DNA from: Escherichia coli
GTDB lineage: Bacteria; Pseudomonadota; Gammaproteobacteria; Enterobacterales; Enterobacteriaceae
Length of the DNA: 64,000 nucleotides
Reading direction: 5' to 3' (one strand)
Assembly: GCF_001677475.2 (NCBI RefSeq)
Contig: NZ_CP015229.1
Part shown: positions 34,266 through 41,105 of the stretch, piece after piece
Numbering within the stretch: position 1 is the stretch's first letter
Layout: the number at the start of each line of letters is the position of its first letter
Made by a program: the position numbers and the translations under genes
The notes under the pieces: model-generated
The model's database searches: none
What the model was told of the DNA's origin: nothing
Seen by the model: the letters and a program-made list of their open reading frames with translations, nothing else

Positions 34266-36185
34266 ATGAGTGGCGCTTTTAACAACGATGGTCGGGGCAT
34301 ATCTCCCTTAATTGCAACCTCCTGGGAGAGATGCAATAAGCTGATGAAACGGGAGACATGGAACGTACCACACCAGGCCCAGGGCGTGACATTTGCTTCG
34401 ATTTATCGGCGTAAGAAAGCGATGCTGACGCTCGGACAGGCTGCGCTGGAAGATGCCTGGGAATATATGGCACCGCGAGAGTGTGCGTTGCTTATCCTCG
34501 ATGAAACCGCCTGCATTCTCAGCCGTAATGGCGATCCGCAAACCTTGCAGCAGCTAAGTGCACTGGGATTCAATGACGGCACGTATTGCGCCGAGGGAAT
34601 TATTGGTACTTGTGCGCTATCGTTAGCGGCTATCTCTGGTCAGGCCGTGAAAACGATGGCCGATCAACATTTCAAACAGGCACTCTGGAACTGGGCCTTT
34701 TGTGCAACGCCGTTGTTTGACAGCAAGGGCCGATTGACGGGAACAATAGCGCTGGCGTGTCCGGTTGAGCAAACTACCGCAGCTGATTTGCCGTTGACGT
34801 TGGCAATCGCCCGCGAGGTCGGTAATTTACTGCTGACGGACAGTTTGCTCGCTGAAACTAACCGTCATTTAAATCAACTTAATGCCCTGTTAGAAAGTAT
34901 GGATGATGGCGTGATTAGCTGGGACGAGCAGGGTAATTTGCAATTTATTAATGCCCAGGCGGCGCGGGTCTTGCGCCTTGACGCGACGGCAAGTCAGGGA
35001 CGGGCAATCACTGAACTCTTAACGTTACCCGCCGTATTGCAACAAGCAATAAAACAGGCACATCCGCTCAAACACGTAGAAGCAACCTTTGAAAGCCAGC
35101 ACCAGTTTATTGATGCGGTGATAACCCTTAAACCGATAATAGAAACGCAGGGAACCAGCTTTATTTTGTTGCTTCATCCTGTGGAACAGATGCGGCAGTT
35201 GATGACCAGTCAATTAGGAAAAGTCAGCCATACCTTCGCTCATATGCCACAGGACGATCCGCAAACCCGCCGTTTGATTCATTTTGGTCGCCAGGCGGCG
35301 CGCAGTAGCTTTCCTGTCCTGCTTTGTGGAGAAGAAGGCGTGGGCAAGGCACTGCTAAGTCAGGCAATTCATAATGAAAGCGAGCGTGCTGCAGGTCCTT
35401 ATATCGCCGTCAATTGTGAGTTATATGGTGATGCGGCGCTGGCGGAAGAATTTATTGGTGGCGATCGCACGGACAATGAAAATGGCCGTCTGAGTCGGCT
35501 GGAACTGGCGCACGGCGGCACGCTGTTTCTTGAAAAGATTGAATATCTGGCGGTGGAGTTACAGTCTGCTTTGCTTCAGGTTATCAAGCAGGGTGTTATT
35601 ACGCGACTGGATGCGCGGCGTTTAATAGCAATTGATGTCAAAGTGATTGCCACAACGACCGCGGACCTCGCAATGCTGGTGGAACAAAATCGTTTTAGTC
35701 GCCAGCTGTATTACGCGTTGCATGCATTTGAAATTACCATCCCGCCTCTGCGTATGCGGCGTGGAAGCATTCCAGCGTTGGTGACTAACAAATTACGCAG
35801 TCTTGAAAAACGCTTCTCTACGCGGCTGAAAATTGATGACGATGCCCTCGCTCGCCTGGTTTCTTGTGCATGGCCAGGAAACGATTTTGAACTTTACAGC
35901 GTCATCGAGAATCTTGCTCTGAGTAGTGATAACGGGCGCATTCGCGTCAGTGATTTGCCGGAACATCTGTTTACCGAGCAGGCGACAGATGATGTCAGCG
36001 CCACACGCCTTTCCACCAGTCTGTCATTTGCGGAAGTTGAAAAAGAGGCAATTATTAACGCAGCCCAGGTCACAGGCGGTCGCATTCAGGAAATGTCGGC
36101 TTTACTTGGAATCGGCCGCACTACGCTGTGGCGGAAAATGAAGCAACATAGCATTGATGCAGGGCAGTTTAAGCGCCGGGTATGA
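34266..36185 (+). CDS. dhaR: dha operon transcriptional activator DhaR (AAA+ enhancer-binding protein)
   Basis: 639 aa from MSGAFNNDGRGISPL...; divergent from dhaKLM. Confidence 0.9.
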   Translation: MSGAFNNDGRGISPLIATSWERCNKLMKRETWNVPHQAQGVTFASIYRRKKAMLTLGQAALEDAWEYMAPRECALLILDETACILSRNGDPQTLQQLSALGFNDGTYCAEGIIGTCALSLAAISGQAVKTMADQHFKQALWNWAFCATPLFDSKGRLTGTIALACPVEQTTAADLPLTLAIAREVGNLLLTDSLLAETNRHLNQLNALLESMDDGVISWDEQGNLQFINAQAARVLRLDATASQGRAITELLTLPAVLQQAIKQAHPLKHVEATFESQHQFIDAVITLKPIIETQGTSFILLLHPVEQMRQLMTSQLGKVSHTFAHMPQDDPQTRRLIHFGRQAARSSFPVLLCGEEGVGKALLSQAIHNESERAAGPYIAVNCELYGDAALAEEFIGGDRTDNENGRLSRLELAHGGTLFLEKIEYLAVELQSALLQVIKQGVITRLDARRLIAIDVKVIATTTADLAMLVEQNRFSRQLYYALHAFEITIPPLRMRRGSIPALVTNKLRSLEKRFSTRLKIDDDALARLVSCAWPGNDFELYSVIENLALSSDNGRIRVSDLPEHLFTEQATDDVSATRLSTSLSFAEVEKEAIINAAQVTGGRIQEMSALLGIGRTTLWRKMKQHSIDAGQFKRRV

Positions 36186-36284
36186 AAGACAGAAACGATT
36201 TCTGATACATCAGAGTGATCTATATTTCATTCCGGCGCACGTTAACATTTTTCAGCATCGTTTAAGGGTTTGTCTATCCCGCAC

Positions 36285-39170
36285 TTAAAAGCTGAAGCGA
36301 TATCCTCCGTTGACTTGCTTCTGATCAAAGAGGTTACCCTGCGTGTAATCCGCTTCGAGGTAGAATGTGTGCTGTTTGTAATACTGTGCACTGACTCCCA
36401 CGCCGTTATTCCAGCCATTACCTTTGAAACTGTACTTCTCCCGGGAGTTGTTCAACAGATATTCTGTATCCCCTGAAAACTCGCGGATAGCGCCAGTCTT
36501 CACATAGACATTCAGCTGGCTGTTGCCTGCGGTGATGTCATATCCCAGTATCATGCTGGCACGCCCCAGCAGCGATTTGTAGTGATTCAAATGTATATTG
36601 AGACCATTACTCGCCTTCAAAGCCATCTCATTCTGGTGGCTGTATGTGAGCTGGGTTTGCGGCTCTATATAGAATCCATAACCAGTAGGGGTCAGGTTGA
36701 ACCTCTGACCGGCTTCCAGGGAGATGCTCAATCCATTAGCAGTGCCGTTGGCGTTAACGCCGTTGTTCTGACTGTCCAGTACGTGGAAACTATTTTTCTG
36801 GCGCGATGCTTTTACAACGAGATCGCTGTAAAAACCGTTTTGTGCCATGTAACTGGCGTACATTCCCATGTAGTCTGAACGTGCGGTACCGTCGCCTCCG
36901 CTATAGTCCGGCGATGCATGTGTTGAGCCAATATACAGACCGACATACAACGGCATTACATCAGAGAGACGTTTATCCCCACCAAACTGGATACCGCTGT
37001 AACCCATGTCAAAGCCGCTCAGTTTGCCACTGGCGAAGGAGTCCAGACTTCCCCCATAACTGCGCAGCCAGATATTTCCGTCTTTACTCTGATTTCGCAG
37101 GTCACCCATCCGTTGCATCAGCGTACGGTTTTCAACATAGTTCAATAAGTAACCGACATTGAGATAATTGCCGCCAGCATCTGCGGTCGTGGTGGGTTTA
37201 GGTGTGGGAGTGGGGTTAGGCGTAGGATCGGGTTCAGGTGTAGGATCGGGGTTGACTATGGGAGGCTGAGCGGGAGCCGGTGTTGGTTCAGGATTAGGAG
37301 TCGGTTCCGGAACTGTCCCGGAAGCGTAAAGCTCCCAGTTAGTGCCATTTTTACGCACATCGTACAGATATCCCCCCAACTCAACCTGAGAAGACGCGCT
37401 GAACGAGGCCGCACCGTCAGTGGTTTTTACCACTGTCAGAACTTCATTTCCCGTAGTGGCCTCGCTGCCCTGGTTGCGGATGGCCAATACGTGATTACCA
37501 GCACTACTCCCGCTGATATTCAATAAATCCCCTTTATTATTAACGCCATTACCCTCGCCAACAACATCAGCACGCATAATAAAGGTACTGTTACCGCTCA
37601 GGTTCTCTACGTTTAATGTGGTAAATGTGCCGGCAGTTGACCCGTGGCTGGCAAAATCGACAGTTGAATGGCTCAGCGCCAGCGTGTCGAGATTAGAATT
37701 ACTTGTTACGTTCCAGACGCTGTTATTCATTGCAACGTCCAGTTTCCCGCCATTGACATTATCGCTGAGGGAGGAACCTGTCCAAACCGACCCAGGGTGC
37801 ATATCCAGATTGATTAGCCCACCTTTGGAGAGAACGCTACCGTTGATAAGCATACGACCCGAGGCGTTGATGCGGCTGGCGGCATAACCATCGTCATGTT
37901 GCGTTGCGATGGCCATCTGGTCGGGTGTACTCATATCAATGACCAGATCGCTCGTGAGGTCGATCTGGCTGTTGGTCATGGCATAAATCCCCCTAGCTCC
38001 TGCCGCGCCGGTGATAGCCAAACTGTCTCCGGTTATTCTACCGCCGCTGAGCGCCCACAAACCCAGCGCCAGACTGCCATTACGATCAACCGTAATATCG
38101 GTATTTTGCATGTTGACAACAGCCGTTGCCGTCTGGGCTGAGGCACCATAAGAACCGCTGGAAAAGATGCTGTTTCGTTGCGCTGCCGTGCCAGAAAAAT
38201 TGATTGTCGCGTCTGAACCACTGGTTACGAGGCCACCGCCCTGCGCGGAAGAAATATGGCTATCAGCACCGATAGTGGTTGTACCACCACGAACTTCGAC
38301 GCCATTTGCCGCGGCTCCAGTTACATCAACAGTGAGTGCATTCGCGCTCACCTGGCCAAAGCTCCAGAGGCCGTGTGCATTATCGCCATTGGTTGTAATG
38401 GAACTGTTTGTTCCGAGATCGACAACAGAGTTTTTCTGTACGTTTATCCCCATGGCGCTGTAGCCCTGAACATCGATTGTCAGGTCTGTCGCCGTAAAAC
38501 GCGCAGCACCATTGGCGTTATTGCCGTTGAGACCACCGATATAAACACCTGTACTTCCATCGGTCTTGATTTTACTTCCGCTTCCAAGATCGACACTGGT
38601 GCCATAGTCATTGATTGTTAGGCCTATACCGTTCGAGTTTTCAATGGTGAATTGAGTGGCTGTTAGTGTTGAGCTATGTCCAATAATGATGCCGTCATCG
38701 TTACTCTTAATGGTGCTGCCTGTGCCTAAGTCAGCATGGGTATAGTCACCAATTAAATTAATGCCGATGGCAGAGGTTTGACCAACAACATCTACTGTAA
38801 GTCGGTTAGCTGTCAGGGAGCTGTTCTTGCCCTGAATAATGATTCCCTTTGCATATCCAGAGGCGTCGTTGACATTGACGGTGACATCATTACCCAGGTT
38901 GATATTGCCAGGCGTGTTTCCTGCTGGGGTCATTACACCATAGAGGTTTCCTGATGGATCGGCGGTATCTCCTGTAATTCTGTCACCATCACTAATAGTA
39001 ATATTGGTGCCATTTTGACTTCCTAAATCAGCAGCTATCAGCAGGGGGGAAAAGATAATTGCATTCAAACCAATAGCGCCATATTTTATCAGTTGAATGG
39101 AGGGCGAACGGATTTTTAATTCAGCGAGACGATCGGCTTTGGTATTCCCATTGTGTTGTTTGATGCCCAT
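36285..39170 (-). CDS. ycgV: Autotransporter adhesin YcgV (AIDA-like)
   Basis: 961 aa; repetitive Gly/Thr/Ser-rich passenger, Pro/Thr-rich linker, C-terminal beta-barrel ending ...YRFSF. Confidence 0.85.
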   Translation of the reverse strand: MGIKQHNGNTKADRLAELKIRSPSIQLIKYGAIGLNAIIFSPLLIAADLGSQNGTNITISDGDRITGDTADPSGNLYGVMTPAGNTPGNINLGNDVTVNVNDASGYAKGIIIQGKNSSLTANRLTVDVVGQTSAIGINLIGDYTHADLGTGSTIKSNDDGIIIGHSSTLTATQFTIENSNGIGLTINDYGTSVDLGSGSKIKTDGSTGVYIGGLNGNNANGAARFTATDLTIDVQGYSAMGINVQKNSVVDLGTNSSITTNGDNAHGLWSFGQVSANALTVDVTGAAANGVEVRGGTTTIGADSHISSAQGGGLVTSGSDATINFSGTAAQRNSIFSSGSYGASAQTATAVVNMQNTDITVDRNGSLALGLWALSGGRITGDSLAITGAAGARGIYAMTNSQIDLTSDLVIDMSTPDQMAIATQHDDGYAASRINASGRMLINGSVLSKGGLINLDMHPGSVWTGSSLSDNVNGGKLDVAMNNSVWNVTSNSNLDTLALSHSTVDFASHGSTAGTFTTLNVENLSGNSTFIMRADVVGEGNGVNNKGDLLNISGSSAGNHVLAIRNQGSEATTGNEVLTVVKTTDGAASFSASSQVELGGYLYDVRKNGTNWELYASGTVPEPTPNPEPTPAPAQPPIVNPDPTPEPDPTPNPTPTPKPTTTADAGGNYLNVGYLLNYVENRTLMQRMGDLRNQSKDGNIWLRSYGGSLDSFASGKLSGFDMGYSGIQFGGDKRLSDVMPLYVGLYIGSTHASPDYSGGDGTARSDYMGMYASYMAQNGFYSDLVVKASRQKNSFHVLDSQNNGVNANGTANGLSISLEAGQRFNLTPTGYGFYIEPQTQLTYSHQNEMALKASNGLNIHLNHYKSLLGRASMILGYDITAGNSQLNVYVKTGAIREFSGDTEYLLNNSREKYSFKGNGWNNGVGVSAQYYKQHTFYLEADYTQGNLFDQKQVNGGYRFSF

Positions 39171-40013
39171 ACCACTCCTATATAGTACCCAGGCTATGGG
39201 TCTATGGATTTTGTCATTTTGTTTAAGTCAATGAATAATATCCTCTTATCATCATGATATTTGTATGGTGCAATCATGATGAGCTGCTCTGAGAATAATT
39301 CTCTATTACCGGGCAAAATCAGGAACACAGGAATTAATATATATTTAACATCCCCCTTACAAAGGTGAGCTTAGATCGAGTTATTCCCTAAGTTGTCGTT
39401 ACTTATTCCAATTCGTTACAATGAATATGACAAAAACATTACAACAAACAGCGGTTAAATAATTTGGTGAATATTTTTGGTAATAATCCTAATTGGTTAT
39501 GGGTTTTTCGCTTGATGTATCTGCATAACAAAAACAATATGAGCCATTTTTGCATTACTAATAAGAAAAAGCAAAAAACATCGATATTCATTTTTGATCA
39601 ATGGATTTTCTGGCATATCGTTATTATCGTGATACTGGTTATCATTTTCATCTTGCCAGCATCGCACGTAATCACGTTATTCGGGGATTTTATCTGCGGG
39701 ATATTACCCTTCAGGTAAGTCCTTTTCTCGCCAGCATATTGGAGCGTGATCAATATTGATCAGCTGTGAAGGGGGCTGATGTGTAGTGGAACAAAAAATT
39801 ACGTTATATCACTGCTAATGAGATATCCGTCATCTGAACATTTATGTCTTTAATTATTCTCGTGGTTCACTGTAGGCAATAAGCACAAAAGTGTAGGATG
39901 TTATAAGAATGGTTAGGACTCGGTGAAATGAAAAATCCACGCAATTGCGTGGATTTTATATACTTTTGCGCTCTTCATGAGATTTAGCGAAACCTCATGA
40001 GACAACAAATTAA

Positions 40014-41105
40014 TTAGACGTTGAACAGGAAGTTCATTACATCGCCATCTTTAACGATGTAATCTTTGCCTTCTGCACGCATTTTGCCTGCTTCTTTCGC
40101 GCCTTGTTCACCTTTGTAAGTGATGAAATCTTCGAACGAAATAGTTTGTGCACGGATAAAGCCTTTTTCAAAATCAGTATGGATTTTGCCAGCGGCCTGC
40201 GGCGCGGTTGCACCAACCGGAATGGTCCATGCACGTACTTCTTTCACCCCAGCGGTGAAGTAAGTTTGCAGGTTCAGCAGCTTATAACCGGCACGGATCA
40301 CACGGTTCAGGCCCGGCTCTTCCAGCCCAAGCTCCTGCATAAACTCGTCACGTTCTTCGTCGTCCAGTTCGGCAATGTCTGCTTCAACAGCAGCACAAAC
40401 CGGAACCACAACAGAACCTTCTTTCGCCGCGATTTCACGCACCTGGTCAAGATACGGGTTGTTTTCAAAACCGTCTTCGTTGACGTTGGCGATGTACATT
40501 GTTGGTTTCAGCGTCAGGAAGCTCAGGTAACGAATAGCCGCTTTCTCTTCAGCGCTTAAATCCAGCGCGCGCAGCATACCTGCGTTTTCCAGCTGCGGCA
40601 GGCATTTTTCCAGTACCGCCAGCTCGGCTTTCGCGTCTTTATCGCCACCTTTGGCTTTCTTCTGTACGCGATGAATCGCACGTTCGCAGGTGTCGAGGTC
40701 CGCCAGCGCCAGTTCGGTATTGATAACTTCAATATCATCCGCCGGGTTAACTTTGCCGGAAACGTGAATGATGTTGTCATTTTCAAAGCAGCGAACAACG
40801 TGACCGATCGCTTCAGTTTCACGGATGTTGGTCAGGAACTGGTTACCCAGACCTTCGCCTTTCGATGCGCCTTTTACCAGACCGGCGATATCGACAAATT
40901 CCATGGTCGTGGGAAGCGTACGCTGCGGTTTTACGATTTCAGCCAGTTGATCCAGGCGAGGGTCAGGCATTGGTACGACGCCTGTGTTCGGCTCAATGGT
41001 GCAGAATGGAAAGTTGGCCGCTTCAATACCGGCTTTGGTCAGCGCGTTGAACAGGGTAGATTTCCCGACGTTGGGCAAACCGACGATACCGCATTTGAAT
41101 CCCAT
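40014..41105 (-). CDS. ychF: Ribosome-binding ATPase YchF
   Basis: 363 aa; G1 motif GLPNVGKST. Confidence 0.95.

Follow-up and report, generated by a model that had tools for sequence, protein, structure and literature searches.

The AT-rich spacer between ycgV and ychF of Escherichia coli: probable silenced control DNA of ycgV joined to a conserved ychF terminator

The window analysed here is a 64,000-nucleotide stretch of E. coli DNA, in which ycgV (961 aa; 36285..39170) and ychF (40014..41105) both lie on the minus strand and are separated by a spacer of 843 bp (39171..40013) that carries no annotated feature. An earlier reading of the letters alone (hereafter the sequence-only reading) had described about 840 bp without an annotated gene between the ycgV start and ychF, and this description was accurate. 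The AT-richness that it reported is equally clear, as the GC content of the spacer is 0.352 (35%) and is lowest at 39300-39700 (0.275-0.345), compared to approximately 0.5 in ycgV and ychF. Among the RefSeq E. coli matches listed, no feature annotation underlies the spacer, and nothing is annotated between the two genes in strain 7/2, in a K-12 derivative or in the curated MG1655 record (NC_000913.3). A megablast search of 5,426 complete E. coli genomes revealed most of the spacer in 4,094 E. coli genomes (4095 records) with identities of 95-99.6%, the closest relative among the matches listed being strain 7/2 (99.6%); in 604 E. coli records the terminator part of the spacer was kept and the rest was gone. 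Comparison of the 64-kb window with itself returned two palindromes and nothing else, and a distant search with the spacer among plasmids matched nothing but chromosomal records that had been mislabelled. With Rfam, run on the spacer at a permissive threshold, no family scored above threshold; matches to Leu_leader (31 bits compared to a 50-bit cut-off), mir-454 and CrcZ were sub-threshold and driven by the terminator, and were rejected.

The 84-aa ORF that had been pointed out at 39464..39718 is indeed present, on the plus strand and with a TTG start, and 67 of its codons follow an ATG at 39515. Its description as largely hydrophobic is correct for residues 45-84 (GRAVY +1.78), where there is one TM-like stretch (residues 46-72), and incorrect for residues 1-44, which have a polar, basic character (GRAVY -0.23). 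When the spacer was shuffled 2000 times with dinucleotides preserved, an ORF of at least 84 aa arose in 14% of the shuffles and an ATG-started one of at least 67 aa in 27%. No GGAGG-like Shine-Dalgarno sequence was detected within 20 nt upstream of the starts at 39464, 39515 and 39539, and a Pfam search with the ORF found no family. Thymine occupies 48% of the second codon positions, and the ORF therefore contains runs of Ile, Phe, Leu and Val.

The alignment of 11 alleles (the window, strain 7/2, K-12, O157:H7, O145 and six others) revealed that the frame is not conserved in K-12 and the other strains. A TAG interrupts codon 11 (39495 G>A) in nine of the 11 alleles, which leaves the full 84-aa form to the window and strain 7/2 alone. 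When translation is read from the ATG at 39515, none of the 11 alleles has an interrupted frame, and its length ranges from 59 to 84 codons: 67 aa in seven alleles, 59 aa in the three with a 75-bp deletion, and 17 additional codons through stop loss (TAA>CAA) in one. Predicted homologous proteins in a collection of 5.8 billion proteins also include frameshifted C-termini and A-run frameshifts, and the alleles and predicted proteins together have at least four kinds of C-terminus. All 85 source-named protein matches are from E. coli or Shigella, are called 'hypothetical' and measure 49-90 aa. Among the 26 changes observed in the ORF across the 11 alleles, 17 replace an amino acid, 7 are synonymous and 2 affect a stop; the synonymous fraction was not in excess (neutral expectation 0.23; p = 0.37), and codon positions 1, 2, and 3 were changed 11, 6, and 7 times, respectively. 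Counted from the ATG at 39515, 6 of 21 changes were synonymous (p = 0.33), and the hydrophobic core itself has I/V, H/P/L/Y and I/L replacements among alleles. As a control, the last 100 codons of ychF in the same alignment had 15 changes, all of them synonymous and at third positions (p = 1.6e-9). A six-frame screen of the spacer also returned a synonymous excess in frame +2 (p = 0.002), which was rejected because it lies in an indel-rich patch (39768-39841), includes stops and is out of frame between strains.

Because five independent tests, of length, frame conservation, selection, start signals and composition or family, agree, the 84-codon ORF is, judged from these sequence data, a chance reading frame and a by-product of T-rich DNA rather than a gene. 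The conserved frame and ends, the purifying selection and the ribosome-binding site that characterize small-protein genes are all missing from it, and in its T-rich second codon position, its length within the range of shuffles and its lack of selection it is like the spurious hydrophobic ORFs of AT-rich intergenic DNA, from which no difference was found. The earlier proposal of an unannotated small membrane protein thus finds no backing, given the neutral changes, the absent Shine-Dalgarno sequence, the chance length and the unconserved frame.

No gap interrupts the alignment of the K-12 spacer with positions 39171-39654 of the window, and K-12 coordinates were transferred with an offset of +777 between U00096.2 and U00096.3, which we take to be the right one and which agrees with the other coordinates found. 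By this transfer, the AT-rich core of the spacer (approximately 39328..39628) is the ortholog of the K-12 promoter island 1255333_301 (PMC3661553, Table 1), and its position coincides with the GC trough. Panyukov and Ozoline listed 78 such 'promoter islands' in K-12, among them 1255333_301 with the context ycgV(-)ychF(-), its H-NS code 'A' meaning that it was bound in all ChIP studies considered, and tied this island to a predicted foreign gene (PMC3661553). Promoter islands bind RNA polymerase, yield short abortive products only and are silenced by H-NS (PMC3661553, PMC7054387), and yfaL/ypaB is likewise among those listed (PMC3661553). The region studied here thus qualifies as a promoter island because it corresponds to one of the 78 K-12 entries: it is orthologous to 1255333_301, about 96% identical and flanked by the same genes, and, as in the K-12 islands, it is AT-rich, has, by a simple scan, dense promoter-like hexamers compared to its neighbourhood and lies beside a horizontally acquired gene, ycgV and the spacer being absent from ST131. 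It differs in that this strain has kept 75 bp, located immediately beyond the island, which K-12 has lost, and the H-NS binding and abortive transcription are K-12 data. The promoter islands are reportedly to be credited to Shavkunov et al. 2009 as well.

A simple consensus scan placed 3 of the 13 sigma-70-like matches of a 20-kb region inside the 843-bp spacer, a local enrichment of approximately 7-fold. Dinucleotide shuffles of the spacer contained 5.0 +/- 2.5 such matches, and since the observed matches are no commoner than in shuffles of the same composition, the promoter-island property appears to be compositional. The high-affinity H-NS motif TCGATAAATT, searched with up to two mismatches, was not enriched over the whole window (66 matches compared to 68.6 expected), and its only match in the spacer is at 39981-39990, within the ychF 3' UTR. 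In addition, a genomic SELEX study recorded an RpoH-holoenzyme peak in the ycgV-ychF spacer.

On the ycgV side, a Shine-Dalgarno sequence AGGAG (TATAGGAGTGGTATG; 39175..39179, minus strand) was read from the sequence, with 4 nt between it and the ATG at 39170. Repression of ycgV in APEC is exerted by the LysR-type regulator YbdO, which shifts a 126-bp promoter probe in EMSA (PMC11681634). The primers of this probe (PMC11681634) map to 39171-39190 with 0 mismatches and to 39277-39296 with 2 mismatches, and thus its equivalent here is the ycgV-proximal promoter and operator segment at 39171..39296 (minus strand). This segment contains a perfect 10-nt inverted repeat, TCATCATGAT-N14-ATCATGATGA (39249..39282, no strand), which is inside the only 58-bp block without polymorphism among the 11 alleles (39228-39285) and which we consider a candidate operator within the YbdO probe. 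The published sigma-54 and GalR sites tied to ycgV are within the gene, outside the spacer. The first 100 codons of ycgV (38871-39170) showed 8 non-synonymous and 5 synonymous changes in the 11 alleles (p = 0.25 compared to neutrality), and in the RefSeq records of O157:H7 and O145 the gene is marked as a truncated pseudogene; by this comparison ycgV seems weakly constrained.

The spacer is more polymorphic than its surroundings, with 8.8% variable sites among the 11 alleles compared to 4.3% at the end of ycgV and 5.0% at the end of ychF. The 75-bp indel polymorphism (39655..39729, no strand) is bounded by 12-nt direct repeats at 39651-39662 (TCTTGCCAGCAT) and 39726-39737 (TCTCGCCAGCAT); the segment, present here, is missing from K-12 and from roughly every second genome with the spacer, the latter estimate being 13 of 26 evenly spaced full-length rows that had a two-piece 93% match. 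A hypervariable patch of 50 bp around runs of G and A (39771-39820) has 14 polymorphic sites, along with several indels of 1-3 nt. Self-comparison also revealed a perfect 16-bp palindrome, TGATCAATATTGATCA (39747..39762, no strand), approximately 580 bp upstream of ycgV, which contains two Dam GATC sites 10 bp apart, at 39748 and 39758, and is imperfect in K-12 (position 39755). A preprint has tied differentially methylated GATC sites to ycgV in evolved K-12 lines, possibly other sites than those of TGATCAATATTGATCA.

The ychF-proximal 89 bp (39925..40013, minus strand) are a separate, deeply conserved element, which the sequence-only reading did not mention. On the ychF strand, the segment 39905-40016 folds into two hairpins with a combined dG of -33.2 kcal/mol (z -5.6). 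The structure of the first hairpin (39965..40009, minus strand; inner stem 39972-40002) is conserved across genera, with four pairs that have double changes, some of them compensatory. The second (39932..39957, minus strand) is a palindrome with 13-nt arms that forms 11 stem pairs and a 4-nt loop; it lies 56 nt after the ychF stop codon and is followed by UUUUU on the minus strand, as is characteristic of Rho-independent terminators. This 89-bp unit is the sole part of the spacer kept in ST131 and other B2 genomes, where only 39925-40011 is retained. It is the core-genome 3' UTR of ychF, whose second hairpin is a strong intrinsic terminator that would halt the co-directional pth-ychF transcript before ycgV; an insulating role is what we infer for it. 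A literature search on a ychF sRNA in enterobacteria found nothing relevant.

Taken together, the spacer is very probably composite non-coding DNA, made of a silenced ycgV control region and the ychF 3' UTR with its terminator, in which the ORF arose by chance. The anatomy of the spacer, the neutrality of the ORF, the orthology with the K-12 promoter island, the mapping of the probe and the fold and conservation of the terminator were established directly. The suggestion that the spacer holds ycgV regulatory sequence of the AT-rich, H-NS-silenced kind is supported by the K-12 island orthology and the YbdO probe mapping, with H-NS and YbdO evidence that is carried over from K-12 and APEC CE1. 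This main finding is already published, as a K-12 promoter island with H-NS binding and as a regulator-bound fragment. According to the proposed mechanism, positions 39171 to approximately 39924 would be part of an accessory ycgV module (approximately 36179..39924), in which the 126 bp beside ycgV hold the ribosome-binding site and the YbdO repressor site, and the AT-rich core would serve as an H-NS nucleation platform, which would hold RNA polymerase at numerous promoter-like sites but yield no productive transcript and would keep the Ag43-like autotransporter gene ycgV silent. H-NS occupancy and weak transcription as known for K-12, and YbdO binding as known for APEC, presumably apply in this strain too.

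A long AT-rich upstream region is also found in other H-NS-silenced cryptic adhesins, such as the autotransporters yfaL and ypjA and the chaperone-usher fimbriae, and the spacer may be regarded as another case, known for K-12, in which E. coli silences an acquired adhesin through AT-rich, H-NS-bound DNA. It differs from these adhesins in that, to our knowledge, no regulator relieves the silencing of ycgV, the sole reported one being the repressor YbdO. For annotation purposes, the ORF is best left unannotated and the region labelled as ycgV regulatory DNA and ychF terminator.

Two other products of the spacer were weighed against the composite non-coding reading, and both appear very improbable. 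The ORF, or its 59-84-codon version from the ATG at 39515, could be a real and young single-pass membrane peptide specific to E. coli; some gene callers predict it, a few records say 'membrane protein', the frame from this ATG stays open throughout the alignment and the C-terminal part has its TM-like stretch. However, a peptide under selection would have to be reconciled with the lack of a synonymous excess and with replacements in the very hydrophobic core, with a C-terminus altered by stop loss, by the 75-bp deletion and by frameshifts, and with a length within chance and no Shine-Dalgarno sequence; it is also absent from the curated MG1655 annotation and would sit in DNA reported to be transcriptionally silent (PMC3661553). 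The spacer could otherwise encode a regulatory RNA, either a long structured leader of ycgV or an sRNA on either strand, and this we hold to be no more credible than the peptide. A leader of approximately 450 nt would start from the only consensus-like promoter on the minus strand (39651..39623), but its predicted fold is not more stable than those of shuffles (z -0.56), no Rfam family reached threshold, and the proportion of polymorphic sites in the spacer exceeds the 4-5% of the flanking genes.

The interval between dhaR and ychF has a different content in ST131. In strain 4224 of this lineage, a 27.7-kb island extends from the ychF terminator to dhaR and replaces positions corresponding to approximately 36179..39924 of the window. 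The island encodes a tyrosine integrase, IS3-family elements, a second integrase, RadC and DUF2787, together with genes of an ABC-three-component system and the reverse transcriptase of retron Ec67. The domains of the island integrase are PF13356, PF22022, and PF00589, which is the P4 type.

The exact 20-nt palindrome of the terminator, ATCCACGCAATTGCGTGGAT, was searched in one genome per species, counting exact matches only, and this search revealed 88 occurrences in 87 DNA stretches, nearly all from Enterobacterales and from many genera, including Yersinia, Serratia, Pantoea, Erwinia, Xenorhabdus, Photorhabdus, Edwardsiella, Citrobacter, and Klebsiella. Sixty-eight of the 88 occurrences lie 41-93 nt (mode 61) past the stop codon of ychF. 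At 15 of the ychF-adjacent sites, a homolog of the ST131 integrase begins approximately 130 nt beyond the hairpin, and the arm between hairpin and integrase is conserved and has repeated GAGTACA motifs. Another 15 copies without adjacent ychF consist of the last ~12 nt of ychF (TTCAACGTCTAA) and the whole 3' UTR. Paired copies were found on one contig at distances of 7.56 kb in Salmonella diarizonae, 22.4 kb in Kluyvera, 22.5 kb in Erwinia typographi, and 1.5 kb in Citrobacter R56. Direct repeats flanking an integrase island, as expected for an attB site, are thus present in other genomes, and the window has a single copy.

Integrative islands with P4-type integrases classically target the 3' ends of tRNA and tmRNA genes and carry a replacement end. 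The islands described here are alike in that, in other genomes, they sit right after the ychF terminator, with the integrase approximately 130 nt further on and a second copy of the ychF end and UTR at the far end, and differ in that their target is the 3' UTR and terminator of a protein gene rather than a tRNA; the window itself has a single attB-like copy and no integrase. Because of the second UTR copies and the adjacent integrases, this arrangement has the attL/attR signature of elements that target 3' ends, and the ychF 3' UTR appears to be an island attachment repeat with the terminator palindrome as its invariant core, the recombination itself being a prediction. A literature search for a ychF attachment site in enterobacteria found no description, and island catalogues may list it.

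A broader proposal can be put forward only tentatively, and we give it clearly less than an even chance. In this proposal, 39925..40013 would be the conserved attachment site for islands with P4-type integrases, a family widespread in Enterobacterales that includes defence islands such as those with retron Ec67 and the ABC-three-component system in ST131; the palindromic terminator would double as the recombination core, and ycgV and the spacer would be old cargo stranded after loss of the integrase. The identity of the ychF terminator across many Enterobacterales genera, marking an integration hotspot, is the only point that goes beyond the published record. The attachment site would help to delimit islands in other genomes, and with a hotspot at the ychF terminator, the dhaR-ychF interval would therefore differ between E. 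coli lineages, holding ycgV in most E. coli compared to the 27.7-kb defence island in ST131.

The origin of the AT-rich DNA itself bears on this point. It could be what remains, after decay, of the inner end of an ancient, integrase-borne element that brought ycgV to the ychF attachment site, an explanation that is compatible with the composite non-coding reading and adds an origin to it, and which we find rather unlikely. The ycgV gene, flagged as foreign (PMC3661553), and the spacer do fill the exact slot that P4-type-integrase islands occupy in ST131 and at least 15 other species, and the variable segment begins directly after the terminator, at approximately 39924. The 8 nt past the T run (CATTTCAC) match the consensus of the island arm, and the profile alignment extends to approximately 39899, but once the terminator was left out, the arm profile matched the window only at a non-significant level (E = 96, 39898-39930). 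Moreover, tblastn of the ST131 integrase against 36000-40013 revealed no integrase remnant (best E 1.4), and no second attachment repeat was found near dhaR.

Some of the palindrome-bearing contigs deserve separate mention. A metagenome-assembled contig labelled 'Actinomycetes bacterium' has an E. coli ychF (99.7% aa identity) and a K-12-type spacer, and in a 'Chryseobacterium sp.' contig the palindrome lies 61 nt past the stop codon of a homolog of ychF (E<=1e-5 to E. coli YchF); both contigs are probably the result of contamination or mislabelling. On a Candidatus Spechtbacteria contig, the palindrome lies in an unrelated context. In S. enterica subsp. diarizonae CCUG 30040, the two ychF-UTR repeats enclose the 7.56-kb island, whose integrase is split into ORFs of 199 aa and 111 aa, and because of this split the element looks decayed.
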